This document shows, piece by piece, positions 14,410 through 63,442 of a stretch of DNA of 64,000 nt. Positions within the stretch are counted from its first letter, which is position 1. The number at the start of each line of letters is the position of its first letter. Below the pieces are notes generated by a model. That model ran no database searches and was not told the origin of the DNA. It saw only the letters and a list, made by a program, of their open reading frames with translations. Origin of the DNA: an uncultured bacterium (GTDB lineage Bacteria; Planctomycetota; UBA1135; UBA2386); contig CALFZH010000042.1 of the NCBI GenBank assembly GCA_937952215.1, forward strand, positions 43,840-107,839. Direction: 5' to 3'. A program made the translations under genes and the position numbers.

Positions 14410-16662
14410 CTACGGCCTCACGTGCAGGAACAGCGGCTCGGTCACTTCCGCGCACCCCGCAGGCGTCAACATCGCTCCCTGGATCACCAGGGTCACAGGA
14501 GTCAGCAGTGGCGGGAACGGCACGTAGACCCTGAGTGGGTCGCCGAACGCGATCACAGCCGCAAACGCAGATGCCGGGCCGATGTAGTAGGGCACTGGCG
14601 AGCAGAACATTGGCGGCAGGCCGACGGGAAACGGCCGCGGCACGAGCGCGAAGTCGAAGAACGTCGCCGCGATTTGGGGTGGTGGTTGGATGGGCACATC
14701 GAAAGCAACCTGCAACGGCAGCGGGCTGGCGCCGACGGCCGGCATCTGCTCGACGACCATGGAGTAGCCGGACGTACCCAGCACTGCCTCGCCGAGGTGC
14801 TGCTCGATGTCGAGGGTGCGGTCGATCGCCGCAGCGGTGTTCGTCGTGCCGCCGAACATCAGCGTTCGGCCGGTCGCGACGTGGAACGTGGCCGCTGCGT
14901 TGCTCGTCGGCGACGGCAATACCCCGAACGATGGCTGCCAGGAGTCCCCGTCCCATTCCCAGCGGGCATCGAACCGGTTGGACGTGTTCGGATCGATGCC
15001 GCCGTCCAGGATCGTGCGTCGCTTGATCGGGTCGTAGACCATCGTTGCTTGCACACGCATCTCCGGTGCGAACGGGTGGTAGACATAGGTCCACTGATAG
15101 GTGTTGAGGTTGAACTCCTCGGTGCCAGGCACCAGGACGCCCTGAGCGTCTCGCCCCCCGTAGACGACCAGCCGATTGCGATCGGGATCGAACGCCATGG
15201 CATGTCCTTCCCGAAACGTCGGGGCCGGGTACGAGCCGAGCCAATGGGGGTTGGCATTGGAGTACTGGTAGGCATAGAGCTCGGCCGACGCCGGTTGGGC
15301 GCCGGCGATGCCCCCGCGAAGCCACACCAACCCGTTGTTGTCGGCCGCGGCTGCGGCGTTGCGACGGAAGAGCACATTCCATCCCAAGGTGGGGTTGGGC
15401 CGCTGCGTCCACGTTCCGGCAATGAAGGTCCAGTAGTCCGTCAGCAACGTGCCGTTGGTGGCGATGCCCCCGAAGAGGAACACTTCGCCCGGGGCCGGCG
15501 AGACCATGACTCCGCCAAAGCGAGGCGGCGGTGAAGCCCCTGCCAACTGCTCCCAGCGCTGGCCATCGAACTGCCAGGTGTCCCCGAGAGCCGTGCCGGC
15601 GGCGGAGCGACCGCCGAACATCAGTGGGCCGTTCACACCATCGTCAACGAGCATCGCCTGGCTGCGTGCCGGCGGCGTGACGGTCGACTCGGTCTGCACA
15701 CTCCAGTCCGAGCCGTCGAACACCCAGATGTCCTGCCTCGTGACGAACGTGTTGTCGCGACCGCCGAACAGCACGCACTGCTGACGGGCTTCGTCGTAGA
15801 CCAACGTTGCGCCATCACGGGCCGGGGGACTCGTGAGAGTCGAGACCGTCGTCCACTGCACACCGTCCCATTCCAGCGTCTCCGCGATCACTGCACCGCT
15901 GACTCTGCCGCCGAAAGCGACCACCTTCTGGCGGGCCGAGTCGAAGGCGAGAGCTCGCCCGGTAGCGAACGTCGCGGGGGCTGTAGTCGGGGTCCACACG
16001 GAGTTGGCCCAGGTGAAGGCCCCCATGTCCGTCAGCAGCAAGGGGCCGCGCGCGGGATGGAAGACGAACCCGCCGAAGTGGTCGCCGGCCGCCGGCAGTG
16101 GAATCGGTTGCCAGGTCTGGAACGGCGCCATCGTCCATGCCGTCACAGCCGGCGGACTGGTCTGCTCGAACACCAGAACGGCCTCGTTCGCGTTGGCGTC
16201 GTAGACCATCGCCTTGCGCATGACCCCGACGCTGCTCGGAACCGGCACACCCGCTGGCTGCGCCGGGAACCAGCTGCCGTCGCGGATCAGCGTGCCGACT
16301 TCCGGGCTCCACGCGAACGCCGTGGGCACGCTGTCGGGTTGCGGGTAGGGCATCGGGCAGATGGCCGGGTTGCCGGAAGTGCCTGGGCCGCCTGGGTAGG
16401 GACCGGTGATACCCTGATCCCCGGGAAACAGGACACCCCCGCGCCCGTGCCATTCCGCGACGCCGTTCTGGCTGCTGATCACGATGCGGTTGGTTTGGCG
16501 ATCGAAGTACCCGCCGCCGGGCACCCAATCGACGCCAGGAGCCCGACCCCGCTGAAAGCCAACGTTCCACTGTGCGGTCGCAACGTCGGCGCTGGCGATC
16601 GCCGCTGCCAACGCAAGGGCCAGCCCGGAAGCCGAGGGGATGTGATCGCGGAGGTTGGTCAT
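14410..16662 (-). CDS. Secreted Kelch-like repeat beta-propeller protein with shared C-terminal module
   Basis: Track ORF of 750 aa. Signal GLALALAAAIASADVATAQ. Repeated units of the type ALAFDSARQKVVAFGG, TLVYDEARQQCVLFGG, AMAFDPDRNRLVVYGG and W-x-W/F-DG. C-terminal module ends ...VPFPPLLTPVTLVIQGAML...LFLHVRP. Confidence 0.85.
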   Translation of the reverse strand: MTNLRDHIPSASGLALALAAAIASADVATAQWNVGFQRGRAPGVDWVPGGGYFDRQTNRIVISSQNGVAEWHGRGGVLFPGDQGITGPYPGGPGTSGNPAICPMPYPQPDSVPTAFAWSPEVGTLIRDGSWFPAQPAGVPVPSSVGVMRKAMVYDANANEAVLVFEQTSPPAVTAWTMAPFQTWQPIPLPAAGDHFGGFVFHPARGPLLLTDMGAFTWANSVWTPTTAPATFATGRALAFDSARQKVVAFGGRVSGAVIAETLEWDGVQWTTVSTLTSPPARDGATLVYDEARQQCVLFGGRDNTFVTRQDIWVFDGSDWSVQTESTVTPPARSQAMLVDDGVNGPLMFGGRSAAGTALGDTWQFDGQRWEQLAGASPPPRFGGVMVSPAPGEVFLFGGIATNGTLLTDYWTFIAGTWTQRPNPTLGWNVLFRRNAAAAADNNGLVWLRGGIAGAQPASAELYAYQYSNANPHWLGSYPAPTFREGHAMAFDPDRNRLVVYGGRDAQGVLVPGTEEFNLNTYQWTYVYHPFAPEMRVQATMVYDPIKRRTILDGGIDPNTSNRFDARWEWDGDSWQPSFGVLPSPTSNAAATFHVATGRTLMFGGTTNTAAAIDRTLDIEQHLGEAVLGTSGYSMVVEQMPAVGASPLPLQVAFDVPIQPPPQIAATFFDFALVPRPFPVGLPPMFCSPVPYYIGPASAFAAVIAFGDPLRVYVPFPPLLTPVTLVIQGAMLTPAGCAEVTEPLFLHVRP

Positions 16663-16931
16663 GCCGGGTGTAGTGCGGAAACCGCGCCGGCCATGCGCAG
16701 GAATTCGGAAGGCGCATCAGGAACTCGTGGGGGGTAGCTGCGACTTCGTCGGGCTTCCACGAGCGAACGGCGATGCGGTCTGGCGTGCCGGCGGACCGCG
16801 GCGTCGGGCGCCGATGGCTCCCGCCACGTGCTCCCGCTCAGGGACAGAACCGATCGGGATCTGCGCGCCATCCTCGATCGCCGCCTCGCGCCGTCGCCGA
16901 GCGGCGTCGCATCAGCACGCAGCGGCGCGGA

Positions 16932-17519: not shown

Positions 17520-17614
17520 CGCGGGTTGCTTCGCCGAAAATCCGGCCGCACGCCCGCAAGACCCGGGCGCGGCCGGCACTGTACCATCCAGACTCCCGCC
17601 TCGCTGGCCGCCGG

Positions 17615-20600
17615 ATGCGGGTCCATGCTGCCATGAACACGCCGGACGCCCTGCTCGCCGACCTGTTCGCTCGTCCCGACGACGAGTGGCGCGCCGGTCT
17701 CGAGCAGCTCTGCCGCGAGCATCCCGAATGCGAGCCCGAGCTGCGGCGCCGGTTCTCGCGTCTCGAACAAGCCGGCGTGGCCATGCCGATCGAGAACAAG
17801 GCGCAAGCACTCCAGGATGCGCCCGAACACTTCGGCCCCTACCGCCTGCTGCGGCGGCTCGGCGGCGGCGGCATGGGCGTCGTGTGGCTCGCCGAGCACG
17901 AAACGCTGCACCGCGAAGTCGCGATCAAGATGATCCGACCCGAGCGGTTGTGGTTCGACAACGCGCGCGAGCGCTTCCAGCGTGAAGTGGAAGCGGTCGC
18001 CCGGCTCCGTCACCACGGCTGCGTGCAGATCCATCAGGTCGGGGACGTCGACGGCCTGCCCTACTTCGCGATGGAGTACGTGGCCGGCGCCAGTTGCGAC
18101 CAGCTCACGGCGGCCCTGCGCGCCACCGGCAAGCCGCCGCACGAGCTCACGGGCGCCGACCTCATGGTGGCCTTGCGTGCCCACCGCGGCTCCGTCGAGA
18201 GCGAGTCCTCGGAGCTGTTCGCCGGCAGCTGGGTGCGCGTCGCGGTCCGCATCGCGCTGGCGGCGGCCGAAGCCCTGGCGCACGCCCACGCGCGTGGCGT
18301 CGTGCACCGCGATCTCAAGCTCGGCAACCTGATGGTGAGTCCCGAAGGACGCGTGGTCCTGATCGACTTCGGGCTCGCCGTCGCGGAGGGCACGTCTCCA
18401 CTGACCAGCGCTGGAGCGCTGCTCGGGTCGCTGCCGTACATGGCGCCCGAACAACTCCGCGCAGAGGCGGCCGTCATCGGCGAGCGTACCGACGTCTACG
18501 CCCTCGGCGTCTGTCTCTACGAGCTGTTGGCGCTGACCGGACCGTTCGCGGCGCGGAACGAATCGGGCTTGCGCAGCGACATCCTGGCCGGCAACGCCGT
18601 GCCGCTGCGCGCGCACAACGCCGCCGTCGCCAGCGACCTCCAGGTCGTGGTCGCCCGCGCGATGCACGTCGATGCCGAACGCCGCTACGAGTCGGCGTCC
18701 CACTTCGCGGCGGATCTGGCGGCGGTGCTGCAAGATCGCCCGGTGCAGGCGCGTCGGGATGCGCTGCCGGCGCGGCTCATGCGCTGGGGCCGCCGCCGGC
18801 CGGCGCTGGCGACGGCGGCCCTGCTGTCGCTGCTCGCGTTGCTGATCGTGCCGACGGCGTTCTCCCTGGCGATCGCCGGGCAGCGCGACCGCGCACTGGC
18901 CGCAGAGCAACTGGCGCGGCAGCGCGAGTACGGGGCGAACATCGCGGCGGCCAGCGATGCAATGTTGGTGGGCAACGGCGAAGAGGCGCGCCTGCGGCTG
19001 GAGGCCTGCGCGCCGGAGCTGCGCGACTTCGAGTGGCGATACCTGAACCTGTCGCAGGACGACAGCCTGGCGACGATCCGGGTCGGCACCCGGCCGGTTT
19101 CGGCGGTGGCGGTCGTACCCGACGGTGGGTTGTTGGCCGCGGGCAGCGACGATGGCCGCGTGTGTGTCGCCGCGGTCGACGGCAGCGGCACCGTGCGCGA
19201 GGTGGTGGCAGCCGGCGGACCGGGCATCACTGCCATCGGCTTTGGTGTCGGGGCCGCGGAGTTGTTCGTGGTCGATGCCGCCGCGACGTTGCGCGTATTC
19301 GAGGTGGCAACGGGCGACCTCCGCCGCGAACGCGCTGCCTCGCAACCGCACGAGGCACTGTGGCTGCCCAACCCAGTGACCCACGTCGTCAGCGACGGCG
19401 GCGGCGCGCGACTGCAGTTGCTCGACGCGACGACGCTTGCAGCGTCACCACCGGTCGGCCTGTCGCTGCAGGACGGCGTCACCGTTCGCAACTACGGGAT
19501 CGATGACAACGAGATCGTGTCCGGCACCAGCCGTGGCGCGGCGATCTGGAACCTGGTCGACGGCAGCATCGCGGCCTCGCTGGTGACCATGCAACCAACG
19601 GTGGTGCTCGGCGCGAGTGTGGGATTGCAGAGCGTGCTGCTCGAGTCCGACGGCATCCCGACTCTGTGGCATCGAACCGAGCAGAAGGCCGTGCCGGCAG
19701 CCATCGACTTGCGTGGTCGCCCGCCGCTCACGACGTTGTTCGTCGACGAGGGGCGCCACATCGTGCTGCCGTTCGCCGACGGCGACATCCATGTGTACGA
19801 CGTGGCGCAGTCGCGCACGGTGCGCACGATGCATGGTCACCAAGGGGCCCTGACCGCGGCGGCGGCGGTTCCGCATTCCGCGTCCTTCGTCACCGGCGGC
19901 GAGGACGGCACGGTGCGGCGGTGGGACTGCCGAGTGCACAACGGGCAACTCGAGCTGCTCGGGTATGGATACGGTCGTTCCTTGGCGATCGGCGAAACCG
20001 GGCACCTGCTGACCGGTGGCGAGGATGCGGTCGTACGCGCAACCGACGTCGCCACGGGTGCGCCCATCTGGTGGGGAGACAGCCAGCACTGGGTCAACGG
20101 TGTCGCCGTGATGCCGGGCAGCGACCTTGTCGTCTCGTCGTTTCACGAACGACTCGGGTTCTGGTCCGCCAGCGATGGCACATCGCGTGGGTGGTTGGAC
20201 CTGCCAGACAGTGGGATGGCCAGCCGACTGTTGATGCTGCCAACGCACGGCTTGCTGGCGGTCGCCTCCCGTGTGGGGCGAGTGACGCTGGTCGCGGACG
20301 AGCCTCGACGCGTGCAACGGCAACTGGACGTCCACCAGGACTTGATCACGGACCTGGCGTTCGATGCGGCACGATCACGGCTGTGGACCTGCGGGCACGA
20401 TGGCAAGCTGCAGTGGTTCGCAATCGACGGCGCCGATGCCCCGGTGGTCGTCGATACGATCGATGGCAAGTTCGAGTCGATGGCTCTCGCTGGCGACACG
20501 ATCTACACGAGCGAGGCGAGTGCCGACGGTCGCCGGGGCAGCCTCTGTGAACGGGACGCGGCGACCGGCGAAATCCGACGGCGGCGGGCAGTCGCCGAAA

Positions 20601-21412
20601 TCGCGACGGTCGTGCGGGTGCTCAACGACCGGCGCCTGTTCGTGGGCACACAACACGGACACCTCGCGTTCTGGGACCGAGTGGCCTTCGCATCGGTGCT
20701 CGATCAGGTGAAGTTCTCGATGCCCGTGCGCAACCTGGTCGTTGCGCCGGACGCCACGTGGGTGGCGGCGATCGCGAAGTCAGGGGCCCCACTGATCCTG
20801 CGCGGGGACGACTCGGCACCGCGCGACGCCGAGTTGGTCCGCCGGCGCGTGAGCATCGAACGGGCCCGGGCGCGTACCGTCGAAGCGATGCAGTGCCATT
20901 GGCCGCCTCGCGCCGCCCGCTCCTTGCGTGCCAACGCAACGTTGTCGACCGCCGAACAGGAGTTGGCGTTGACGCTGCTGCCGCCGCTTGGCTCTTGGAC
21001 CGTCGGCGCAGCCGGGCGTCGGCTCTTCACGGCGCCCATGACGTCAGCGGCGCGCGATGCCCTGCGCCCGCAGTTCGAAGCCATCGCCGAGGGATTCGCC
21101 GCCCTCGGGGATGCGTCCACGCTGTGGTTGCGATGCGCATACGCGCTTGCCGCAGTGCGCATGCAGCAGCCTCGAGCGGCTCTCGACGCCTTGGCACCGG
21201 TACGGATCGACCCGAAGGTCGGCCCCGACCACGAGGAGGGCTTCTTCCTGCAGGACGTGACCTTCGTGCGCAGTCTTGCCCACCTGCAGTTGGGCGATCG
21301 CGCTGCTGCAGTCGTCGAACGCGAGCGACTGGCGGAGCTCATCCGTGGCGAGTTCGCCAAGGACGAGCGTGCGCACCTGTTCCTGAGCGAGCTCGACGCC
21401 GAGCTGCGCTGA
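17615..21412 (+). CDS. Ser/Thr protein kinase with TM segment and large WD40/beta-propeller-like plus helical C-terminal region
   Basis: Track ORF of 1265 aa (alternative ATG at 17633, MNTPDALL). Kinase motifs: GGGGMGVVWLAEH, VAIKMI, HRDLKLGNLMV, DFGLA, PYMAPE. TM helix ALATAALLSLLALLIVPTAF. The rest has repeated beta-strand-rich blades. Confidence 0.9.
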   Translation: MRVHAAMNTPDALLADLFARPDDEWRAGLEQLCREHPECEPELRRRFSRLEQAGVAMPIENKAQALQDAPEHFGPYRLLRRLGGGGMGVVWLAEHETLHREVAIKMIRPERLWFDNARERFQREVEAVARLRHHGCVQIHQVGDVDGLPYFAMEYVAGASCDQLTAALRATGKPPHELTGADLMVALRAHRGSVESESSELFAGSWVRVAVRIALAAAEALAHAHARGVVHRDLKLGNLMVSPEGRVVLIDFGLAVAEGTSPLTSAGALLGSLPYMAPEQLRAEAAVIGERTDVYALGVCLYELLALTGPFAARNESGLRSDILAGNAVPLRAHNAAVASDLQVVVARAMHVDAERRYESASHFAADLAAVLQDRPVQARRDALPARLMRWGRRRPALATAALLSLLALLIVPTAFSLAIAGQRDRALAAEQLARQREYGANIAAASDAMLVGNGEEARLRLEACAPELRDFEWRYLNLSQDDSLATIRVGTRPVSAVAVVPDGGLLAAGSDDGRVCVAAVDGSGTVREVVAAGGPGITAIGFGVGAAELFVVDAAATLRVFEVATGDLRRERAASQPHEALWLPNPVTHVVSDGGGARLQLLDATTLAASPPVGLSLQDGVTVRNYGIDDNEIVSGTSRGAAIWNLVDGSIAASLVTMQPTVVLGASVGLQSVLLESDGIPTLWHRTEQKAVPAAIDLRGRPPLTTLFVDEGRHIVLPFADGDIHVYDVAQSRTVRTMHGHQGALTAAAAVPHSASFVTGGEDGTVRRWDCRVHNGQLELLGYGYGRSLAIGETGHLLTGGEDAVVRATDVATGAPIWWGDSQHWVNGVAVMPGSDLVVSSFHERLGFWSASDGTSRGWLDLPDSGMASRLLMLPTHGLLAVASRVGRVTLVADEPRRVQRQLDVHQDLITDLAFDAARSRLWTCGHDGKLQWFAIDGADAPVVVDTIDGKFESMALAGDTIYTSEASADGRRGSLCERDAATGEIRRRRAVAEIATVVRVLNDRRLFVGTQHGHLAFWDRVAFASVLDQVKFSMPVRNLVVAPDATWVAAIAKSGAPLILRGDDSAPRDAELVRRRVSIERARARTVEAMQCHWPPRAARSLRANATLSTAEQELALTLLPPLGSWTVGAAGRRLFTAPMTSAARDALRPQFEAIAEGFAALGDASTLWLRCAYALAAVRMQQPRAALDALAPVRIDPKVGPDHEEGFFLQDVTFVRSLAHLQLGDRAAAVVERERLAELIRGEFAKDERAHLFLSELDAELR

Positions 21413-23584: not shown

Positions 23585-25966
23585 CTACCTGGCCAATGGC
23601 ACTTCGAGCCGCTGCGTACTCACCCACTGCGTCATGGTCGTCGGGAGGTGGAATGCCTGGCAGTAGAGCGTGAAGTTCGACAGGTACTCGGGCAGCGGAA
23701 TCACGGTGGTGAGCGGCAGCCACGAGAAGCCGCTCATTTCCACGATCGCGATGTGGTCGGGTCCATCGATCGGGACGAGCAGCGAGCAGCCGTCCTGGAC
23801 GAAGGAGACACCCTGGAACACGAACTGGGTCGGCGCGAGGCCGAGAACCAGCACGGCTGGGCCGGTCGAGACCATCCCGACGAAACTGCCACTGGTGCCG
23901 ATTCGCTGGGGCCCATACCAATCGATGCTCGCGGAGCTGCACGATGCACCCGTCGTCATCACGGGTGCAGCAACGGGGAACTCGAACTGGTCGAAAGTCA
24001 CGTAGTTGGGCCCGGAGTTGCCGTTCTTCGCGTACGCGATCGCGAACCTCCGGTTGAACAGGCGGCTGACGCCGCCACCGATGGCGGTGTCACTGCCCGC
24101 CGGAGCGAACACCGTCTCCGCCTGCAGCTGCTGTCCGCGGTAGCCAGTGGAACGGAAGTACAGGTTCTCCGTCACCGTGCTGCGGAACGTCAGTCCCCAC
24201 GTGCGCGAGTATCCTTCGACAGCGAGGCCGGTGAGTTGCAGCCGGGCATCGGCATTGCTCTGCAGCACCACCGTCCCGTTCGGTTCGGATGGCACGCCAT
24301 TGATCCACCGCAGCCGCACGGTGCGAATCTGGTGACCGTTGCTGCCGGTCGGCTTGCCCGGCTGCTGGGCCAGGGTCGACGTCGTGAATGCGACGAGCAA
24401 CTCCCCGTCGACGCCGTCGATCTGCGGCGCCAGCTTGTGATCCGGGGAGCCGCTGTCGACGAAGTGCGCTGCCGACACGGCTCCCGTCTGGCTGACGTCC
24501 CGCACCGCGACACGCCAAGCGTTGTTCGTGCCGAACGTCGAGTACGACTGGTAGGCAACCTTCCAGCCCCAGAGGTCGGTTCGCTTGTTCGTTCGCGGCC
24601 GCTCGAGGTCGGTGCCGGCGATGTCGGCGATCTGGAACGGTGTCGTCACGGTTCCGGTCACGGCGTCCAAGTAACAGCCGAAGATGTCGGACGACGTGGA
24701 TTCCGCGAAGGCGCCCCCTCCATTCGGTTCCTGCTGCCAGACCAGCAACGGCAAGCCGCCGGACAGCGTCCAACCGGTGCCACCGACATCGACCCGCCAG
24801 GCGTTGTCGGGCGCCGCGATGAAGATCACGCTGGTGCTGGTGGTGGTGTCGAACCGGTCATGGCTGTGACAACGCACGGCGCGTGAGCCCGAAGCGAAGG
24901 TCCGGTCGAAGGCGATGATGCCGTACCGGTTGCCCTCGTCGTACTCGCCGGCCGGCCCGCGAGTCGACCACGAGGCCGTCACGTCGACGAACGGAACGCT
25001 CCCCAGTGCGCCCGAGGAGGACCATCGCTGCACATACAGATCGGAGTCGCTGGCCGAAGCAGCGACGCAGTAGGCGATCCAGACTTGGTCACCACTCACT
25101 TCGTTGTCGCAGAACGAGTCGACCTCAGTGCGTGTCGACCCGAAGATCGACGCACCCGGTCCGAGCAGCGGGTCGACCACGACGGGGAACGTCGCGCTCG
25201 CAAGCCACTCCCCATCGAGCCGCAGCACGATCGTCCCATCGGCGTAGCTGGTGGTCATCGGCCGCGTCTTGCCCTTCGCGTCGACGGCCGTTGCGGCCCC
25301 ATAGGTGACGATCGGGCGGCCCGCGGCGTCGTGGAACACGATCGCCTGATGCGCCGCGCTGGCCGCGGCCGCGTGCAGTTCCGTCGCGACCGCACCGCGC
25401 ACCTCGAGGTCGCCGGAAGCCATCGGCCGCTGGCGGATCACGAACGTCTGCTCGATTCCTTCGACGCGGATGTCGTACGCTTCGACGACGCCGCCGTGGT
25501 CATACTCGGCGCGCCACTCGGTCCAGGCGAGGCGGCTTGGCTCGGTGGCCAGTTCCTGGAAGCCGACGCGCACCGACTGCGTCTGCCAGCGGAGAGGCAG
25601 ATTGTGCGGGTAGTCCATGCCGAGCAGGGGCACGTAGGTTGGGCCGTCGTGGAACGACGCCTTGTAGCGCGACCCGGCAGCCCAGATGCCGTAGCTGGAG
25701 CCGCCGTCTGGCTCCGCAGTGTGGATCGGCACACGCACGTCGGTCGCCGGCTGTCCCGGCTGGAACTGGGTGCTGACGGAGGCGTGCGTCGGCTCCTCTT
25801 GGGCGACTGCCGTGGTGATCGCCAGCAACGCGGGGGCGACGAAGCGCCAGATGGGAGGGCGAGGAACGAGTCCCGGGTCTCTGCAGGGGGCATGGTCCCC
25901 AGGACATCCGCGTTGCGGCGTGCGTGTGACGCCAAGCCTCCGCTTGTTCCGCTCTTCGTACGGCAC
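23585..25966 (-). CDS. Large secreted repeat protein with shared C-terminal module
   Basis: Track ORF 23585..26146. A hydrophobic signal-like segment IWRFVAPALLAITTAVAQE is present. The nearest in-frame canonical start is the GTG at 25966, so the start is uncertain. The body is beta-rich and repetitive. C-terminal module: ...QDGCSLLVP...PLPEYLSNFTLYCQAFHL... Confidence 0.75.
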   Translation of the reverse strand: MPYEERNKRRLGVTRTPQRGCPGDHAPCRDPGLVPRPPIWRFVAPALLAITTAVAQEEPTHASVSTQFQPGQPATDVRVPIHTAEPDGGSSYGIWAAGSRYKASFHDGPTYVPLLGMDYPHNLPLRWQTQSVRVGFQELATEPSRLAWTEWRAEYDHGGVVEAYDIRVEGIEQTFVIRQRPMASGDLEVRGAVATELHAAAASAAHQAIVFHDAAGRPIVTYGAATAVDAKGKTRPMTTSYADGTIVLRLDGEWLASATFPVVVDPLLGPGASIFGSTRTEVDSFCDNEVSGDQVWIAYCVAASASDSDLYVQRWSSSGALGSVPFVDVTASWSTRGPAGEYDEGNRYGIIAFDRTFASGSRAVRCHSHDRFDTTTSTSVIFIAAPDNAWRVDVGGTGWTLSGGLPLLVWQQEPNGGGAFAESTSSDIFGCYLDAVTGTVTTPFQIADIAGTDLERPRTNKRTDLWGWKVAYQSYSTFGTNNAWRVAVRDVSQTGAVSAAHFVDSGSPDHKLAPQIDGVDGELLVAFTTSTLAQQPGKPTGSNGHQIRTVRLRWINGVPSEPNGTVVLQSNADARLQLTGLAVEGYSRTWGLTFRSTVTENLYFRSTGYRGQQLQAETVFAPAGSDTAIGGGVSRLFNRRFAIAYAKNGNSGPNYVTFDQFEFPVAAPVMTTGASCSSASIDWYGPQRIGTSGSFVGMVSTGPAVLVLGLAPTQFVFQGVSFVQDGCSLLVPIDGPDHIAIVEMSGFSWLPLTTVIPLPEYLSNFTLYCQAFHLPTTMTQWVSTQRLEVPLAR

Positions 25967-26149
25967 CGTCGTAGCGCGGAGCCAACGCGCCTTCGTCGCG
26001 GTGGCTACACGCCGTAGTCGCGATGCCCTCGACGTAGCTGTCGCAAACGCGCACAGCGTGGCGTTCCGATCGCGCACACACCTTCGAAATAGCCGCCCCG
26101 GCACGGGGGTTGGATCGATGGGGGAAGTACACGGACTTCGAGGCAATCC

Positions 26150-34575: not shown

Positions 34576-34793
34576 GCGTTCGACGAAAGGTGTGCCGCCA
34601 GCGTGTCGAGGTCCGGAATGTTGGCGTGGCGGCGGTTCGTCGGCCGTGGCGTCAGCGGCTCGACACCGCCAAGTGCGGAGAGGGGGAGCGAGGCATGAGA
34701 CGTAGCTGCCACCGGAGAGAATGGCAATGCACGTGCCGCGAGTTACCCGACCCGGGTTGCGGCGAGCGGAGGTTGCTGGGTCACCCTGCTCGC

Positions 34794-50141: not shown

Positions 50142-50293
50142 CGGCAGCGGGCGACGCGCGCGAGGAAAGGGGCGGAGCGAGGCGATGGCGACACGCTAGT
50201 CAGGGCCGTCCCGGCCTGGTCAAGAAACGGTCAAGCCGCGGGCGACCTGCACATCGTTGCATCCTGCGCGCGCCCCGCGGGGTGCTACGGTGC

Positions 50294-52651
50294 ATGGCTC
50301 GCATGGCCCCTTCGCCGAGTATCGCCCGCGAACTGGTCGCGCACAGCCAGGCGCTGCGGCGGCTGGCCCGCGACCTCGTCGGCAGCTCCGACGCCGACGA
50401 CCTCGTGCAGGACACGGCTGTGCGCGCGCTGCGTTCGCCGCCGGCGGTCCCGGACGGGCTGTTCGCATGGCTGGGCACGGTCATGCGCCGACTCGCCGCC
50501 AATCGCCGCCGCGGCGACCTCCGGCGGCGCCGGCGCGAGGCGGCGAACGGGCCGGCGGCGAGCGGTCCGGCCGCCGACGAAGAGCCCGCACGCTGCGACC
50601 TCGCGCGCGCCGTCAGCGAGGCAGTGTTCTCGCTGCCGGAGCCGTACCAGACCGCGCTCGTACAGCGCTACTTCCAGGACCTGTCGCCGGCGGCGATCGC
50701 CGCGCGCACGGCGGTGCCGCTGGCGACCGTGAAGAGCCGACTGCAGCGCGGGCTCGAACATCTGCGGGCGACGCTCGCACGCCGCGACGGGCGTGACTGG
50801 CGCCTAGCCCTCGTCCCCGCGATCGGCCTGCCGGGGCGAGGCCAGTGGCTGTGGCCGTTCTCGGTGAGCCTGATGTCCACTTCCGGCAAGGTGATCGTCG
50901 TGGTTGCGGCGTCGGCACTGGCGGCGTTGGCCCTGTGGATGCCGCGCACCGAGCCGCCGCCGCCCGCGATCGCCGCCGACGCAGTCACGGGCAGCGTCGC
51001 CGCCGTCGCGGCCGCGGGCCCCACGCTGCTGCCCGCGCGCGAGGCTGTTGGCGTGGAGGAGTCTGTAGGACTCGCCGAGTTGGCGCAGCCGTTCGCGTTC
51101 GAGCTGCACTGCCGCGTCGTCGACGACAGTGGCTTGGCGATCGGCGGTGCCAAGGTGGCGATCGCGCCGCGCGCCTGTGCGCTCGCGACGTGGCCGGTGG
51201 CGACCGACAACGACGGTCGCGTCGTGCTGGCGTGGCGCGCGCGCGCGCGCCGGCTCGTCATGACCGTGGGGCTCGAACACGGCGGCTCGCGCACGTCGCT
51301 GCAGCGGCTCGAGGTCGCGGCCGGCGAACCCGCGCACGTGCACTTCGTCGCCGGACAGTCGCCGCTGCCGGCCAGCGTGCATGTCGACGAGTCCGGGCGT
51401 CAGGTGGTGTCGATGCCGGACTGCAGCCAGGGGCGCACCGACTGCATGGCCTGCCACGACACGTGGAAGGGCGCCGACCTGTTCGGCGCGTGCGCTGACG
51501 TGCGCGCCGGGCTGCATCCCGACGCGCTGTTCGGCGAACGGGGCCAACCGCTCATGCTCGGGCTCCACGTGAACTCCGCCGGGCCGGAGATGGAGATCGA
51601 GTTCACGGATTCGGTCGCGACCGGAACCAACGAAGCGCGTCGGCCGCAGCGGCACATCAGTGGCCGCGTGTTCGGCGCCGACGGGCGCCCGGTGCCGGGC
51701 GCGCGCCTCGAGATCCACCGCCCGGACTTCTTCGGCGGCGGCACGCGCACGCGGCCGGATGGCAGCTTCCGCTTTGCGTGGCCGGTGCCCGGCGATGGCC
51801 GTGTGTGGGTGCGTGCAGGCGGCGGTCCCGAGGGGCTGGCGACGATGGTGCTCGATGTCGGCGACGACCTGCCGATCCACGGCGACCTGCACCTGCAGAC
51901 GGGGCGCGTGCTGCGCGGCCGCGCGGTCGGCACTGCCGGTCAGGCGCTGAGCGGCGCGCGCGTCGAGTACGTCGCTGCGCCGGGCCAGGACGGCGACGTC
52001 GCGACGGTCGGTCCCGACGGCGCGTTCGCGTTCGCCAACCTGCCGCCGGGGCCTGGGCACCTGCTCTTGTGGGGCGTGCGCGGCGAACGGCTGCCGATCG
52101 CCGAACTCGGGCCGGTGCTGGCGGACGGCAGCGACGTGCTGTTCGACCTGCGCACCGCCGCACCGGTGGACGGCTCGCTGCGGCTCGTCGTGCAGAGCCA
52201 TGACGGCGGCGAGGCCGTCGATGCGGAGGTGTTCGTCTGGCAACTCGCGACGCGCCGCGGCTCGGTGGTCGAGCGTGGCAAGGACGGCGCGTTCCACACG
52301 CACGGCCTCGCCGCCGGCTTCTATCGCATCGAGGTGACAGCACTCGGCGGCGGCGTCCACGATCTCGGCGAGCATTGGCTCGACGGCCGCGGTCTCGTCG
52401 AACTCGCCCCGTTCACGTTCCCCGCGCCGGCGAAGCTCGTCGTCGAGCACGATGGCCTCGAGGTTCTCGAGCTGCTGCAGCCGCGCGCGGACATCGACGT
52501 GCGGGCCCACCTCGTCTCGGGCTTCCGCGGCACGGTGCTGCTGCCGGCGGGGCCTTGGCTGGTGCTCGCCAAGGGGGTCGGTGATGGCGTGCGCCGGGCC
52601 GAGGTCGAGCTTCGCGCCGGGGAGACGGAGGTGTTGCGGTTCGAGCGGTGA
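50294..52651 (+). CDS. ECF sigma factor fused in frame to a TM helix and an extracytoplasmic region with carboxypeptidase-regulatory-like domains and one CXXCH motif
   Basis: Inside track ORF 49403..52651, which has no stop anywhere between the domains. Start at ATG 50294 or 50303. Sigma region 2: DADDLVQDTAVRAL...FAWLGTVMRRLAANRRR. Region 4: LPEPYQTALVQRYFQDLSPAAIAARTAVPLATVKSRLQRGLEHL. TM: GKVIVVVAASALAALALWM. Then CMACH at 51443-51457, and ISGRVFGADGRPVPGARLEI...RPDGSFRF and LRGRAVGTAGQALSGARVEY...GPDGAFAFANL. Confidence 0.8.
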   Translation: MARMAPSPSIARELVAHSQALRRLARDLVGSSDADDLVQDTAVRALRSPPAVPDGLFAWLGTVMRRLAANRRRGDLRRRRREAANGPAASGPAADEEPARCDLARAVSEAVFSLPEPYQTALVQRYFQDLSPAAIAARTAVPLATVKSRLQRGLEHLRATLARRDGRDWRLALVPAIGLPGRGQWLWPFSVSLMSTSGKVIVVVAASALAALALWMPRTEPPPPAIAADAVTGSVAAVAAAGPTLLPAREAVGVEESVGLAELAQPFAFELHCRVVDDSGLAIGGAKVAIAPRACALATWPVATDNDGRVVLAWRARARRLVMTVGLEHGGSRTSLQRLEVAAGEPAHVHFVAGQSPLPASVHVDESGRQVVSMPDCSQGRTDCMACHDTWKGADLFGACADVRAGLHPDALFGERGQPLMLGLHVNSAGPEMEIEFTDSVATGTNEARRPQRHISGRVFGADGRPVPGARLEIHRPDFFGGGTRTRPDGSFRFAWPVPGDGRVWVRAGGGPEGLATMVLDVGDDLPIHGDLHLQTGRVLRGRAVGTAGQALSGARVEYVAAPGQDGDVATVGPDGAFAFANLPPGPGHLLLWGVRGERLPIAELGPVLADGSDVLFDLRTAAPVDGSLRLVVQSHDGGEAVDAEVFVWQLATRRGSVVERGKDGAFHTHGLAAGFYRIEVTALGGGVHDLGEHWLDGRGLVELAPFTFPAPAKLVVEHDGLEVLELLQPRADIDVRAHLVSGFRGTVLLPAGPWLVLAKGVGDGVRRAEVELRAGETEVLRFER

Positions 52652-52755: not shown

Positions 52756-55236
52756 ATGACCGGATGCCGCTTCGTTTCGTCCCTGCTGCTCTTCGCCGGC
52801 CATCTGCTGCGGCCGTGCGATGCGCAATGCTCGACGTCGTGGCTCGCGGGCTCGGCGCTGACCGGCGTCTCGGACACGGTGGTCGCCTGTTCGCTGTGGG
52901 ATCCGGACGGTGCCGGCCCTGCCGGGCCGCGCCTCGTCGTCGGTGGTGAGTTCGCGGTCGCCGGCGCGACGACGTCGGGTCTCGTCGCGGCGTTCGATCC
53001 GACGACCGGTGTCTGGTCGGGTTTCGGCGCCGGCCTCACGCCGCTCGCGGACTACTCGGCAGTGCGCGCGTTCGCCACGCTGCCGACCGGCGAGCTCGTC
53101 GTCGGCGGTCACTTCGCTGGCTACATCCGGCGATGGAACGGCAGCGCGTGGACCAACCTTGGCGCGGCCCCGTTCTCGAACTGGGTGATGGCCCTCGCCG
53201 TGGCGAGCAACGGCGATCTGTTCGCCGGCGGCACCGGGACTGGCGTCTGGCGATTCAGCGGCACGACGTGGTCGACGACGACCTCGGGCTACACCAACGG
53301 CGTGCACGTGCTGACCACGCTGGCGAACGGCAACGTCGTCGCAGCCGGGTACGTGAACACGTCCGGCGACAGCATCGTGCGTCGCTGGAACGGCACGACG
53401 TGGACCGCACTCGGCGGCATCTTCGACGACTTCATCGACACGATCGTCGAGCTGCCCAACGGCGACCTCGTGGCGGGCGGCAGGTTCATGAGTGTCGGTG
53501 GCGTCGCTGCGTACGGCGTCGCCCGCTGGAACGGCAGCACGTGGTCGGCGATGGGCAACGGCTTGCACGTCCGCAGCGCGGTCAGCGGCGAAGTCACGGG
53601 GCTCGTGCCCCAAGCCAACGGCGACGTGATCGCGGTCGGCACGTTCACGCGATCGGGTTCGACCGTGCTCAGCAACATCGCGCACTGGAACGGCAGCGTG
53701 TGGTCGCCGTACGCGACCGCGATGCCGAACTACGCGACGTGCGCGCTCACGCTGCCCGGCGGCGACCTCGTGGTCGGCGGTCCGTTCGTCGCGATCGGCA
53801 GCACGAACGTCTACGGCATCGGTCGGTGGAACGGCAGCGCGTGGAGCCCGCTCGGCAGCGGCGCCAACGGTGAGGTCCGCTCGGTCGCGGAGCTGGAGAA
53901 CGGCGACGTGGTCGTCGGCGGCACGTTCACGCAGATCGGCGGCGTGGCGTGCAACCGCATCGCCCGCTGGAACGGCACGACGTGGTCCCCGCTCGGCTCG
54001 GGCGCGGACGGGGCGGTCCAGGCGCTGCTGGCGCTGCCCGGCGGCGAGGTCGTCGCCGGCGGATGGTTCGGGACGATGGGTGGTGTCACCGCGAGCCGCA
54101 TCGCCCGTTGGAACGGATCGACGTGGAGCGCCGTCGGTACGGGCATGAACGACGCCGTCATGGCGCTCGCGCGCCTGCCCAACGGCGAGATCGTCGCCGG
54201 CGGGTACTTCACGACCGCGGGCGGCGCTGGCGCCAGCCATGTCGCGCGGTGGAATGGTGCGTCCTGGCAGCCGCTCGGCACGGGCTTCGGCGGCGGTCTG
54301 CCGTTCCAGTCCGTGCGCACGCTGCTGGTGCTGCCGGACGGCTCGCTCGCCGCTGGCGGCTTGTTCACGACCGCCGGCGGCGTGCCGGCGAATCGCGTTG
54401 CTCGATGGGACGGGGCCACGTGGTCGCCGTTCGGTAGCGGGTTCGCGGCTGGCGTGGTGAACGCACTCGCCATCAACGGGGCGGGCCAGCTGCACGCCGC
54501 CGCCAGCTTTTTCTCGCCGCAGCGCGTCGCCCGGTGGGACGGCAGCACGTGGTCCACGATCGGCGGCGACGTGCTCGGCGACGCCGACGCGATCGTCTGC
54601 CTGCCCGACGGCGACGTCGCCGTCGGCGGCTTCTTCCAGACGGCGGGCGGCGTGCCGGTCCGCAATCTCGCGCGCTGGAACGGCACCACCTGGTCGTCGC
54701 CGCAGAACGGCATCGACAACCGCGTGCTGGCCCTCGCCATGGGGCAGAACCAACTCATCGCCGGCGGCGCGTTCGCGCGCACGGGGGCCGTCGCTTCGGC
54801 GTCGTTCGGCCGCCTCGCAACGACCTGCCCGACCAGCGTCACGTCGCTGCCGACGGCGTGCCTCGGCCCGGCCGGCCCGGTCGTCGCGACCGCCGATTCG
54901 CGGCCGTGGATCGGCGCGAGTCTGCGCACGCACGCGACGGGGTTCGCTCCCGGTACGTTCGCGGTCGTCGTGGGTGGCACCTCGCTGCAGAACGTGCTGC
55001 TCAGCACCCTGACCCCGACCGGCGGTGCCGGCTGCGAGCTGTTCCCCGCTCCCGACGCGCTGGCCGCGGTGGCCACGGTTGGGGGCACCGCGTCGTTCGC
55101 ACTGTCCATACCCGACAACCTGGGGCTGGTCGGCGCGCCGGTCTGGCTCCAGTACCTGCAGGTCGAGCTGCCCGGCGGGGTGTGGACCGGAACGACGGGT
55201 TCGAACGGCCTGGCGTTCACCGCCGGCGCCTTCTAG
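52756..55236 (+). CDS. Secreted beta-propeller-type tandem-repeat protein (12-13 units of ~47-52 aa) with shared C-terminal module
   Basis: Track ORF 52648..55236. The ATG at 52756 gives MTGCRFVSSLLLFAGHLLRPCDAQ (signal). The repeat core ARWNG(S/T)xWSxLGxG...V.AL..LPNGDLVAGGxFTxxGGVxAxxI recurs 12-13 times. C-terminal module: ...GAGCELFPA...SIPDNLGLVGAPVWLQYLQ...SNGLAFTAGAF. Confidence 0.85.
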   Translation: MTGCRFVSSLLLFAGHLLRPCDAQCSTSWLAGSALTGVSDTVVACSLWDPDGAGPAGPRLVVGGEFAVAGATTSGLVAAFDPTTGVWSGFGAGLTPLADYSAVRAFATLPTGELVVGGHFAGYIRRWNGSAWTNLGAAPFSNWVMALAVASNGDLFAGGTGTGVWRFSGTTWSTTTSGYTNGVHVLTTLANGNVVAAGYVNTSGDSIVRRWNGTTWTALGGIFDDFIDTIVELPNGDLVAGGRFMSVGGVAAYGVARWNGSTWSAMGNGLHVRSAVSGEVTGLVPQANGDVIAVGTFTRSGSTVLSNIAHWNGSVWSPYATAMPNYATCALTLPGGDLVVGGPFVAIGSTNVYGIGRWNGSAWSPLGSGANGEVRSVAELENGDVVVGGTFTQIGGVACNRIARWNGTTWSPLGSGADGAVQALLALPGGEVVAGGWFGTMGGVTASRIARWNGSTWSAVGTGMNDAVMALARLPNGEIVAGGYFTTAGGAGASHVARWNGASWQPLGTGFGGGLPFQSVRTLLVLPDGSLAAGGLFTTAGGVPANRVARWDGATWSPFGSGFAAGVVNALAINGAGQLHAAASFFSPQRVARWDGSTWSTIGGDVLGDADAIVCLPDGDVAVGGFFQTAGGVPVRNLARWNGTTWSSPQNGIDNRVLALAMGQNQLIAGGAFARTGAVASASFGRLATTCPTSVTSLPTACLGPAGPVVATADSRPWIGASLRTHATGFAPGTFAVVVGGTSLQNVLLSTLTPTGGAGCELFPAPDALAAVATVGGTASFALSIPDNLGLVGAPVWLQYLQVELPGGVWTGTTGSNGLAFTAGAF
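53128..54710 (+). repeat. Imperfect tandem coding repeat, period ~140-158 bp
   Basis: The CGNTGGAACGG/CGNTGGGACGG (RWNG/RWDG) core recurs at about 53131, 53383, 53525, 53683, 53825, 53965, 54107, 54247, 54400, 54533 and 54672. One degenerate unit lies between the first two. Confidence 0.8.
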
Positions 55237-55305
55237 GCCGGCGTGGTCGGTCTGGATTTTGGTGCCGTCAGCGTGCGCTGGCAGCGGTTCGGCCCTTCCC
55301 AGGGC

Positions 55306-55830
55306 ATGAGCACCAAGACCCTCGCGTTCCTCCTGACCGCCGGCGCGGCGATGGCCCAGACCACGGGCGTGCCCGGCATCAACGACCTGACGGTGAACTG
55401 GGCAGGCTCGGGCACCACGTCGTGCACCTCGATGTGCTTCCCGAACGGCAACGTGGCGCTCAACTTCGACGTCTCGGCGCCCGTCGGCGCAGTCGCGGTG
55501 TTGCTGTTCAGCTTCTGCCCGTGCACGACGTGCTCGCTGCCCGGCCCTGCCAACACCTGCCTGCCGACGATCCCGGCGACGGCGTGCGGCGGCAGCAACC
55601 AGTCGCTCGACCTCGACATGAGCCCGCCGTGCGGGATCACGGTGTCGATTCCGGTCACCGTCAACTCGGCTGGCACGCTCGGGACGACGGTGAACATCCC
55701 GCCGATCGCCGGCATACCGTGCACGACGCCGCTCGCCGTGCAGGCAGTCGTCATCGATCCGTGCGGCGCGGGCCTGTTCGCGGTCCCCGGCCCGTTCGTG
55801 ATGACGCAGAGCTACACGCTCTGGTTCTGA
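55306..55830 (+). CDS. Small Cys-rich secreted protein consisting essentially of the shared module
   Basis: Tail of track ORF 55243..55830 from the ATG at 55306: MSTKTLAFLLTAGAAMAQTTG (signal). Ten Cys. Ends ...NIPPIAGIPCTTPLAVQAVV...TQSYTLWF. Confidence 0.7.
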   Translation: MSTKTLAFLLTAGAAMAQTTGVPGINDLTVNWAGSGTTSCTSMCFPNGNVALNFDVSAPVGAVAVLLFSFCPCTTCSLPGPANTCLPTIPATACGGSNQSLDLDMSPPCGITVSIPVTVNSAGTLGTTVNIPPIAGIPCTTPLAVQAVVIDPCGAGLFAVPGPFVMTQSYTLWF

Positions 55831-60980: not shown

Positions 60981-60984
60981 TGCG

Positions 60985-61161: not shown

Positions 61162-61345
61162 ACGATGGGGCGCTCCCGGTTCGCCTCGGCGTTTGCCGAC
61201 CGTCAGACCGACCCGGCTGCACTCTCCACCCGGCCCACTTTCTGCGCTTGCACCGGCAGGGCGGTAGCGTTCGTCCACTTCCTCGGGCTGGTAGCTACGC
61301 TCCCTCGCCGCTGCCATGCGTGGCAATCCGCAGGAGTCCAGGCCG

Positions 61346-63442
61346 ATGCATCTCCGTCCCGTCGATTCCGCGTTTGCAGCAGCCCTGCTGCTCGGCTCCG
61401 TCACCGCGCAGAGCTACCAGCTGCACGGACCGACGCTCTTGCCCGCGCGCGTCGAAGCGCTCGCCTTCGATCCGGCGAGCGGTCGCCTCGCCGCGGCGAT
61501 GCGCAAGTCGGTCACCGTGTCGGTGCCTGCGGGCAGCCAGGAGCTGCACTTGCGCATCGGCACGCGCTGGCAGCGCGTCGACGAAGGGCTGTCCTGGATC
61601 CGGTTCCTGGTTGCCGACCGGCAACGTGGTCGGCTCGTCGGCATCGGTAACTCGCCCACGCAAGCGAATGCCGTCCATGCAGTCGAGTGGGACGGCACAT
61701 CGTGGACGCCGCCCGCTCCGCTGCAGCTGACGCAGAGCCCGAACGACATCCTCGCGTGCTACCACGAAGGCCTCGGCAAGGTCGTGTTCGTCGAGCCGAT
61801 GACGCGCACGATGACGTGGGATGGCAGCCAATGGCAGCAGCTCGGCACGGCGGTGCCGCCGCTGGGGACCGCCGATGGCGCGCTCGTCTACGACCGCGCG
61901 CGTTCCGTCGTCGTTCTGTGCACCCAGGGTCAGATCTGGGAGTTCGACACGGTGAGCTGGCAGCAGCGCAACGTCCCGGCGCCGCCCGTCGGCAACGACT
62001 TCGCGTTCGCCTACGACGAAGCGCGCCAGCGCTGTGTGCTGTTCGGTGGCCCCGCTTGGCCACAGGGAACCTGGGAGTACGACGGCACGCGTTGGCGCGC
62101 GTGCACTCCCACGCAGGTGCCGCCATGGCGGGCCCGGGCGTCGATGACGTTCGATCCCGCGCGTCAGCGACTCGTCATGCTGGGCGGAATCGCGGTCAAC
62201 CCCGTGACGCAGGTCGGTCTCTGGCACAACGACGAATGGGAGTGGGACGGGCGGGATTGGCTGCCGGTGCAGCAGGACCGGCGGCCACCGGACGACGGCG
62301 ACGTCGCCATGGTCGAAGAACCGGTGCACGGCGGAGTGCTGCTGACGACCACGGCGTGGACTTCCGGCGGCACCCGTATGTGGCGCTGGACGGGAGCCGA
62401 TTGGCAGGGACTCAGGCCCGGCGCCGCGCATCCGACGACGGTCAACGCCATGTGCAGCGATCCCTCGCGCGGCGCCATCTGGTGCTTCGACAGCGGGCTC
62501 GGCGCGAGGACCTGGCGTTTCGACGGCGTGACCTGGAAGCAGCTCGCACCCACGACGTCACCGGTCGCGCGCAGCGGTTCGGCGATGGCCTTCGATCGCG
62601 TGCGCAACGTCGCCGTGTTGTTCGGTGGCGACAACTACTTCACCACCTTCGACGACACCTGGGAGTGGGACGGGCTGACGTGGACGCTGCGCAACCCCGC
62701 GCACCGGCCGCCAGCACGCCAGCTGCACAGCATGGCCTTCGATCCAGTCAGCGGCCGCATCCTGATGAACGGCGGCACCAGCGGCCCGCAGTCGACCTGG
62801 GCATGGGATGGAACCGACTGGACCGACACCGGTCAGTTCAACTACGCCATCTATGGCAGTGCGGCGCGCATGGTCGAGTTCCGTGCGCTGAACCGAGTTC
62901 TGCTGTGGAACGGCGCTGGCTTGACCGCCGAGTGGGATGGCACGGCGTGGATTCCGTGGACGACGCTGATGCCCGCAGCGCTGCGGTCGGGGCGATTCCT
63001 CAAAGGCGCGTCGTTCGACGACACCCTCGTGGTGTTCGACGGTGCGCACACGTGGGTCCTGTCGCCGTTCGCCGCCTCTACGACCAGCTACGGTGCCGGG
63101 TGCGGTGCCGCGACGTCGCCGCGCCTCGCCGCCGGGGGCTCGCCGACGCCAGGGGCCAGGGACTTCGGTTTGTTGGTCGACCGCGCCGAGGCCAACGGGC
63201 TGTCGCTGCTGCTGGCTTCGACGGCGCCCGACAACGTGCCGGTGCTCGGGTGCACGTTGCTGCTGTTCCAGCCGATCCAGATCAGCGTGGCGGCGATCAA
63301 TGCCGGCGGCGCCGCGGCGCACGATCTCTGGCTGCCCGCGGGCAACGCACTGCGGGGGCTCGCGATCGACTGGCAGGCGGTCACGGTCGGCAGCAACGGC
63401 CTCGCGTTCACGCAGGGCGTGGAGACGGTGCTCGGTTACTGA
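61346..63442 (+). CDS. Secreted Kelch-like repeat beta-propeller protein with shared C-terminal module
   Basis: Track ORF 61316..63442. The ATG at 61346 gives MHLRPVDSAFAAALLLGSVTAQ (signal). Repeats ALVYDRARSVVVL, AFAYDEARQRCVLFGG, SMTFDPARQRLVMLGG, AMAFDRVRNVAVLFGG, SMAFDPVSGRILMNGG with W-E-(W/Y)-DG. C-terminal module SYGAGCG...VLGCTLLLF...WLPAGNALRGLAIDWQAVT...SNGLAFTQGVETVLGY. Confidence 0.85.
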   Translation: MHLRPVDSAFAAALLLGSVTAQSYQLHGPTLLPARVEALAFDPASGRLAAAMRKSVTVSVPAGSQELHLRIGTRWQRVDEGLSWIRFLVADRQRGRLVGIGNSPTQANAVHAVEWDGTSWTPPAPLQLTQSPNDILACYHEGLGKVVFVEPMTRTMTWDGSQWQQLGTAVPPLGTADGALVYDRARSVVVLCTQGQIWEFDTVSWQQRNVPAPPVGNDFAFAYDEARQRCVLFGGPAWPQGTWEYDGTRWRACTPTQVPPWRARASMTFDPARQRLVMLGGIAVNPVTQVGLWHNDEWEWDGRDWLPVQQDRRPPDDGDVAMVEEPVHGGVLLTTTAWTSGGTRMWRWTGADWQGLRPGAAHPTTVNAMCSDPSRGAIWCFDSGLGARTWRFDGVTWKQLAPTTSPVARSGSAMAFDRVRNVAVLFGGDNYFTTFDDTWEWDGLTWTLRNPAHRPPARQLHSMAFDPVSGRILMNGGTSGPQSTWAWDGTDWTDTGQFNYAIYGSAARMVEFRALNRVLLWNGAGLTAEWDGTAWIPWTTLMPAALRSGRFLKGASFDDTLVVFDGAHTWVLSPFAASTTSYGAGCGAATSPRLAAGGSPTPGARDFGLLVDRAEANGLSLLLASTAPDNVPVLGCTLLLFQPIQISVAAINAGGAAAHDLWLPAGNALRGLAIDWQAVTVGSNGLAFTQGVETVLGY

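Follow-up and report, generated by a model that had tools for sequence, protein, structure and literature searches.

A previously unannotated C-terminal domain on putatively secreted proteins of a high-GC Planctomycetota lineage

We analyzed a stretch of 64,000 nucleotides from an uncultured member of the Planctomycetota (GenBank assembly GCA_937952215.1, contig CALFZH010000042.1, positions 43,840 to 107,839), hereafter the window, for a protein module of approximately 130 residues with which several of its genes appear to end. An earlier note, made from the letters of the sequence alone, had reported this module at the C-termini of eight open reading frames (ORFs), and all eight were found where it had placed them. 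Six of these are large and are here called A (14410-16662, minus strand), B (23585-26146, minus), C (26150-28825, plus), D (35536-37242, minus), E (52756-55236, plus; 826 amino acids) and F (61316-63442, plus), the other two being the mini-ORFs G (34695-35132, plus) and H (55243-55830, plus). ORF I (8545-10884, plus; 779 amino acids) was not on the earlier list. The GC content of the window is 63-75%, and by their codon-position GC (third-position GC, GC3, 0.82-0.90) the ORFs A-F are plausible genes. The note had described their products as giant, a term hardly suited to proteins of just 568-891 amino acids. The D protein is also encoded, in identical form, on contigs from a bioreactor-sludge metagenome and in the metagenome-assembled genome (MAG) GCA_002343845.1 (contig DDSQ01000084.1).

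The regions in front of the shared module, i.e. the bodies of the proteins, were analyzed with Pfam and NCBIfam. In A and F they consist of Kelch repeats and are homologous to each other (BLASTP 3e-21), E carries a DUF5122/Rax2 beta-propeller, and D carries PPC domains, which match at residues 51-115 only and leave its tail free of them. No family was matched by the bodies of B and C in either database. The earlier view that the bodies are unrelated goes too far: several body types occur, but A and F share theirs, E is also a beta-propeller, and the bodies of the carriers at large are heavily biased towards propellers. Hydrophobic N-terminal leaders closing in AQ are visible by eye in A, C, D, E and F. 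In B, whose start codon is uncertain, the hydrophobic segment is internal and lies about 40 residues past the nearest start codon.

Compared directly with one another, the eight tails give a weak signal. The best pairwise BLASTP E-values among them were 0.014-0.1, and in a MAFFT alignment F, E, C, D and G aligned convincingly while A and B were misaligned. When profiles of four sequences were built with one tail omitted at a time, the omitted tail was always the top non-member, at the right position, among 644 six-frame ORFs (E 0.003-0.6). An exhaustive hidden Markov model (HMM) search of 1.84 billion proteins with a profile of five window tails then yielded 758 protein clusters at E<=1e-3. 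The decisive profile was made of 142 foreign tails, with the window's own D, E fragment and G (P0001-P0003) left out. The module is real, because this foreign-only profile finds window tails at E-values of 8e-17 to 2e-40, and the proposal that a single module recurs is thereby borne out. The check suggested in the note, i.e. to align the tails and build an HMM, gives a strong result for C-F by way of the foreign profile, but a weak one when the eight tails are compared directly. With an earlier database-derived profile, the best non-member six-frame ORF had an E-value of approximately 0.1. A word-indexed protein search returned no match for the F tail and one match for an alignment of 50 tails, and was productive only with full-length A. 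With 1e-3 as the threshold, four rounds of iterated profile searching over the collected sequences recruited none of A, B, H and I.

Four of the window tails are robust members by these sequence comparisons. The tail of E (54823-55233, plus) is canonical and matches the foreign-only profile at E 2.3e-40 over profile positions 1-138, continuing to the stop codon. That of F (63071-63439, plus) is likewise canonical (E 4.3e-21, positions 3-136), its nearest foreign tail, P0045, being 54% identical. The C tail (28427-28822, plus; E 2.2e-19, positions 6-135) represents a subtype with shifted cysteines (PGC ... ACLPSP) and a terminal VRP, and relatives with the same cysteine shift are present in the 50-sequence alignment. 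The D tail (35539-35952, minus; E 8e-17) belongs to a subtype closing in GDRSY, and is 52% identical to its nearest foreign tail, P0006. All four combine a full-length profile match running to the stop with the motif IP-x(4-5)-L-x-G-x(5)-Q. In G, B and A the resemblance is seen only at the profile-profile level, and in H it falls short of this as well.

Three further tails are probable divergent copies. The B tail (23588-23986, minus) was matched by the foreign-only profile at E 2.1e-3 with hmmsearch and at P 3.4e-5 over 105 columns with hhalign. In the latter alignment the two cysteines and the IP..Q motif are matched up, and none of 150 shuffles reached the score. The A tail (14413-14790, minus), which is without the first cysteine and ends in LHVRP, is undetected by itself (hhalign P 0.43; 77 of 150 shuffles reach its score). 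Combined with four full-length relatives that have the same type of tail (P0155, P0156, P0159 and P0160), it matched the family at P 3.3e-5 with 95 columns in register, a score to which none of 120 column shuffles came near, so that A probably represents a divergent subtype. Among 120 Kelch relatives of A, 33 have a canonical tail.

The third of these copies, the mini-ORF G, is called as a gene of 145 amino acids in ENA and JGI and of 106 amino acids by NCBI, with a GC3 of 0.91 over 34794-35132. Its E-value was 1e-10 with a profile holding G itself and 7.4e-5 once P0001-P0003 had been removed, and hhalign gave P 2.3e-5 over 94 columns. G stands alone, with neither signal peptide nor cargo. We read it as a decay product because the truncated mini-ORFs of another carrier locus, described below, share its character; most likely it is a remnant of a gene family evolving by birth and death, and not a functional stand-alone tag.

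The mini-ORF H, situated 7 nucleotides downstream of E, is a cysteine-rich gene call of 195 amino acids with a signal-peptide-like N-terminus. Its hhalign match to the family has a P of 0.027 over 37 columns, a score reached by 2 of 150 shuffles, and its best foreign phmmer match is to the A-type tail P0156 (E 0.015). A single-sequence AlphaFold2 (AF2) model of H had a mean predicted local distance difference test score (pLDDT) of 33.8, too low to be informative, and no similarity was found between H and a cysteine-rich family member at the other locus just mentioned. Its membership of the family is thus not established, and chance resemblance stays the default reading for this ORF. Codon-position GC does not tell on which strand the gene lies, since opposite H there is an ORF of near-equal extent (55233-55811, minus) with the same GC3 of 0.93; gene callers place H on the plus strand. 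ORF I may contribute a ninth, divergent copy (10588-10881, plus). Its C-terminus, LDIPVPAAVSDLMVRAQGLVV...DFFVP, matched the family at hhalign P 2.8e-3 over 43 columns, confined to the IP..Q region, and none of 150 shuffles reached the score, while its N-terminus has a weak cytochrome-c7-like match (Pfam E 2.8e-4). The claim that the module is present in all eight ORFs accordingly stands for C, D, E and F and probably for A, B and G, but H is no demonstrable member.

The domain is about 130 residues long. Its landmarks in the 50-sequence alignment are an N-terminal G-x-G-C, a P-x-x-G, a second cysteine in the context G-C-x-L-L, the motif I-P-x(4-5)-L-x-G-x(5)-Q and the closing motif S-N-G-L-x-L-T-I-G-x-F. 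Both cysteines occur together in 136 of 145 tails, in agreement with the earlier observation of two conserved cysteines, yet A is without the first and the C subtype has them shifted. In the C-type subfamily both cysteines move together, as expected for a disulfide, which the pair is inferred to form. In the E tail the pair corresponds to Cys14 and Cys72, and a third cysteine, in a TCP motif, is found in 80 of 145 tails. The late motif described in the note as [ILV]P..L.G..Q holds at the family level: in the 50-sequence alignment its P and Q are invariant and its G is at least 90% conserved. As to the statement that the last strand often ends in an aromatic residue or VRP, 97 of 144 tails have F, Y, L or W in the final position, and VRP is the ending of C and A. 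Modelled by AF2 with the 50-sequence alignment, the E tail was predicted with high confidence (pLDDT 96.1; predicted template modelling score, pTM, 0.89) as an all-beta sandwich of ten strands, the last of which reaches the final residue. On this model, the module is a folded domain rather than a linear signal.

Positional statistics were obtained from the best 150 of the 758 clusters. In 144 of these there was one full-length match, ending at most five residues from the C-terminus. Of the other six, five were repeat artefacts with several matching stretches, and one (P0140), in which the domain appeared to be internal, continued after it into an Arg/Pro/Ser-rich read-through sequence. Within the same 150, the domain was single-copy per protein and never arranged in tandem. 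Together with the Kelch relatives of A, where it is C-terminal in 32 of the 33 tail-bearing proteins, these counts uphold the strictly C-terminal position that had been proposed.

Each carrier with an organism name derived from a MAG of Planctomycetes or Planctomycetota. One ENA contig was labelled Planctomycetota_UBA2386, UBA2386 being in use as a Planctomycetota family name, and the GC content of all carrier loci was 67-74%. As far as the evidence goes, the family is thus restricted to a high-GC Planctomycetota lineage. All named carriers were annotated as either hypothetical or kelch repeat-containing. Pfam matches among the 74 complete carriers attributed DUF5122/Rax2 bodies to 39, Kelch to 17, WD40 to six and FG-GAP to two, and S51 peptidase and PPC bodies to one each; one further carrier had 14 ELWxxDGT repeats. 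The N-termini of these 74 proteins aligned to the consensus M...AQ, and the carriers appear to have a Sec-type signal peptide, usually closing in A-Q. Short database matches were mostly fragments from short contigs, with one or two true signal-plus-domain proteins among them, e.g. P0110, in which a lipoprotein-type signal is followed by the domain alone, making it nearly cargo-less.

Paralogues were found to be dense. The window contains four robust and three probable copies in 64 kb, four consecutive carrier genes occur at the locus L005, and in the 22 kb of the locus L049 three full carriers are accompanied by three truncated mini-ORFs (2148-2318, minus; 8056-8400, plus; 15318-15572, plus). 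These mini-genes and window G are 56-145 amino acids long, and of the domain they retain just the C-terminal half or two-thirds, in one case with a 40-residue extension behind it. They look like remnants of a rapid family turnover.

As the earlier note had it, the domain corresponds to no named family. In Pfam and NCBIfam no model covers any window tail, and 50 tails searched at E<=1 yielded only scattered single chance matches. A sequence-profile search of PDB was without match, and Foldseek against PDB gave at best an E-value of 0.05 and a TM-score of 0.45, to generic immunoglobulin (Ig)-like sandwiches among the 50 matches listed. No description of the domain was found in the literature. 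Judged by these searches, it is a previously unannotated family, without a Pfam or NCBIfam model and without a solved relative. Its architecture resembles that of known C-terminal sorting and anchoring domains, but the sequence and structure characteristics of each one tested were lacking.

One of the closest parallels is the type A C-terminal domain (CTD) of type IX secretion systems (T9SS; TIGR04183/Por_Secre_tail), which is likewise a terminal, single-copy beta-sandwich on leader-bearing cargo, a likeness by analogy that is not diagnostic of homology. Both are found on many types of cargo, including homologous DUF5122 propellers, and both form many scattered, divergent paralogues per genome that are not clustered with a machinery. 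The present domain differs in its length (about 130 residues versus 70-100), in its conserved cysteine pair and in its own motifs IP..L.G....Q and SNGL.L.IG.F, and while T9SS CTDs are hosted by Bacteroidota, its carriers are Planctomycetota, for which we know of no T9SS. Homology was rejected: when four bona fide CTDs were compared with the family, hhalign gave P 0.89, no tail had an NCBIfam match, and no solved T9SS CTD was among the Foldseek matches listed. The sole TIGR04183 match concerned residues 65-114 of D, within the PPC region, at 22 bits versus a cut-off of 23. Nothing T9SS-like was seen in the 64-kb window or at the other carrier loci (at most 22 kb each).

The remaining candidates were rejected in the same manner. 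GC-type dockerin (NF041540) is also a lineage-specific, cysteine-containing C-terminal domain on the same DUF5122 propeller cargo in the Planctomycetes-Verrucomicrobia-Chlamydiae (PVC) group, but it has about 65 residues with EF-hand-like repeats and is found in Phycisphaerales, unlike the present sandwich of 130, and hhalign gave P 0.09 over eight columns. PPC (PF04151), a beta-sandwich at the C-termini of secreted proteins that is thought to aid secretion, also occurs in carrier D, within the body. Unlike the present domain it occurs internally and in tandem, and at E<=1 not one of the 50 tails was matched by PF04151, whose only match was that in the body of D. Domain 3 of galactose oxidase (E-set, PF09118) is a beta-sandwich placed right after a Kelch propeller in a secreted protein, whereas the present domain is found behind bodies without Kelch repeats or without any propeller as well; PF09118 had no Pfam match at E<=1 among the 50 tails and was not among the 50 Foldseek matches listed. 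PEP-CTERM/exosortase and LPXTG/sortase signals are comparable in being strictly C-terminal, lineage-specific and attached to varied secreted cargos. They are, however, of about 25-35 residues, in which a short motif precedes a transmembrane helix and a basic tail, as opposed to a soluble all-beta domain of 130 residues. Signals of the exosortase, sortase and rhombosortase types (PEP-CTERM, LPXTG, GlyGly-CTERM) were rejected as the C-termini close with a beta-strand (...SNGLAFTAGAF, ...TLTVRP) and have neither a hydrophobic helix nor a basic tail, and the NCBIfam sorting-signal models did not match them. Lastly, the translocator of autotransporters (type V secretion system) is a 12-stranded beta-barrel of about 250-300 residues, unlike this ten-strand sandwich of about 130 residues, which has no Pfam match.

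A genome scan with full-length E identified 40 loci, distributed over many phyla, that share its propeller. Only two of these, both in Planctomycetota MAGs, had a tail of the present family. At the same position, the relatives in Bacteroidota and Chlorobiota have the T9SS type A sorting domain TIGR04183, and one relative in Phycisphaerales (L018) has a GC-type dockerin (NF041540, E 1e-5, just under the cut-off of the model), with similar Cys-rich tails visible by eye in L022, L025 and L012. The occurrence of known localisation domains at the same position on homologous propellers is circumstantial support for a localisation role of the present domain. The relatives in Verrucomicrobiota, Lentisphaerae and Kiritimatiellia (L007, L013, L014, L016, L017, L019 and L021) share a C-terminal domain of about 100 residues closing in '...FYRIR' or '...FYRVR'. 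In the three that were tested (L007, L016, L021) it had no NCBIfam match, and possibly it represents a second C-terminal module that is lineage-specific and unannotated; hhalign showed no relationship between it and the present family.

The domain is almost always terminal, is present as a single copy and contains a pair of cysteines, and its carriers have signal-peptide-like leaders and fall into multiple cargo classes. This leads us to favor the reading that it is a new family of lineage-specific, C-terminal surface-localisation domains, active in export recognition, anchoring or both. By analogy with known systems we hold this tentatively, at somewhat short of an even chance. The coupled cysteines fit an extracytoplasmic location. 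A typical carrier would consist of a Sec-type signal peptide, a binding-type body, mostly a beta-propeller, and one copy of the domain extending to the last residue. Judging from its N-terminus, it would pass the inner membrane via Sec, after which the domain would fold in the oxidising periplasm into the predicted compact beta-sandwich, with the cysteine pair presumably forming its disulfide. As suggested by its position and by the analogy with homologous cargos, the domain could then serve as a shared address for localisation at the cell surface, either through recognition by an outer-membrane machinery for export or attachment, as with the T9SS CTD, or by itself anchoring to a component of the envelope, as do dockerin or SLH-type modules. 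The family as such would evolve by birth and death of paralogues, leaving behind truncated stand-alone remnants such as G. A more far-reaching version, which we regard as unlikely but worth stating, is that carriers of the domain are the cargo of a hitherto undescribed pathway for outer-membrane export or surface attachment in high-GC, UBA2386-type Planctomycetota, possibly relatives of Saltatorellus. This would be an independent PVC analogue of the T9SS CTD system, recognizing a folded C-terminal sandwich of 130 residues with a disulfide bond and displaying many beta-propeller binding proteins.

Planctomycetota have unusual envelopes, and the transport of large proteins to their cell surface is poorly understood. 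With a confident, strictly C-terminal domain on no fewer than 758 protein clusters, the set of surface or secreted proteins of one lineage becomes directly accessible. The distribution of its carriers could be used in phylogenetic profiling for a partner machinery, and a Pfam or NCBIfam model can be built from the present alignment. If sorting turned out to be its role, it would add a second, independent example of secretion being addressed by a folded C-terminal domain; should it be only a binding module, it would still be a new domain family, of modest interest.

Several observations weigh against a role in surface localisation. No translocon, sortase-like peptidase or receptor was found to recur beside the carriers in the window and at seven other loci. 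In P0212 (1062 amino acids) the domain is located at residues 324-461, after a Kelch body, and is followed by about 600 glycine-rich, plausible residues, which could be the result of a gene fusion through loss of a stop codon. A crude hydrophobicity score was passed by 65 of 112 proteins starting with M, the signal peptides having otherwise been judged by eye. The tails co-diverge with the bodies, conservation between orthologues being about equal for the two (e.g. 55% versus 55%, and 42% versus 44%), with little sign of a tag being shuffled onto new cargos. Furthermore, the cargo is skewed towards propellers, with which the domain could work rather than address them, and the unvarying Pro and Gln, along with the conservation of the disulfide, point to a domain that persists and is functional and not to a disposable tag. 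A role as a sorting tag is thus our inference by analogy.

The main alternative is that the domain assists the preceding propeller, as an accessory for ligand binding or structure, e.g. a lectin-like or capping sandwich comparable to domain 3 of galactose oxidase, terminal by ancestral architecture while localisation is decided elsewhere. Approximately 85% of the complete carriers are propeller-bodied, tail subtypes track the type of body and diverge at its rate, a functional surface that is stable is suggested by P and Q, which do not vary, and by the conservation of the disulfide, and the fold is that of a generic Ig-like sandwich. Against this, the propeller families concerned (Kelch, DUF5122, FG-GAP and ELWxxDGT) match separate Pfam or NCBIfam models, non-propeller bodies (PPC in D, S51 peptidase) and near cargo-less forms such as P0110 carry the domain too, and neither a galactose-oxidase C-terminal nor an E-set domain was matched in Pfam at E<=1 or was among the 50 Foldseek matches listed. 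Moreover, such sandwiches are usually tolerated internally or in tandem, while the present domain is terminal in approximately 99%, and homologous propellers in other phyla have localisation domains at that very position. An accessory role is therefore possible, although we think it doubtful.

A pro-domain or intramolecular chaperone, which would aid folding or passage and later be removed, as has been proposed for PPC, would also account for the strict C-terminal position and the one copy per protein of carriers that appear to be secreted, and the combination of PPC domains with the tail in D indicates that this genome makes use of modules of that kind. This we consider improbable: there is no sequence relationship to PPC, most of the cargos are repeat proteins without enzymatic function, a class not known to have pro-domains, and the alignments have no conserved cleavage-site motif at the domain boundary.

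The weakest alternative, that the Ala/Gly/Pro/Leu-rich C-termini of a 70% GC genome merely look alike by chance or composition, is consistent with the non-significant pairwise BLASTP values, the matches of H and ORF I over only 37-43 columns, the inseparability of A alone from its shuffles and the six further occurrences of a relaxed form of the earlier note's motif elsewhere in the six-frame translation, but is excluded for C, D, E and F by their foreign-only E-values relative to the best non-member and is most improbable for the family as a whole, given the 758 database clusters with full-length C-terminal matches, the confident AF2 model and the scores of A (joint profile), B and G, which lie well clear of every shuffle control that was carried out.

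Some neighboring genes were also recorded. Directly upstream of carrier E (49403-52651, plus) is a gene for a sigma factor of the extracytoplasmic function (ECF) type, with regions 2 and 4, fused to CarboxypepD_reg repeats. In another MAG (L045), a stand-alone ECF sigma gene (9144-9698, minus) is situated upstream of carrier P0226. The adjacency may reflect a regulatory linkage or a coincidence. Two very large Ser/Thr kinases are encoded at 17615-21412 (plus) and 37852-41121 (minus), one combining Pkinase with WD40 and the other Pkinase with about eight TPR units. Kinase expansion has been reported in phagocytotic Planctomycetota by a study that discusses Saltatorellus at length (PMC11032199), and the large kinases of the window may be a hint of lineage. 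Lastly, a multihaem cytochrome gene (4397-6358, plus), with matches to MtrC/MtrF domain II/IV, cytochrome c7 and class III cytochromes, is found beside a long ORF (1-3045, minus) that spans about 1,000 codons and continues beyond the edge of the window. Together with ORF I, these may form a cluster resembling those for extracellular electron transfer.

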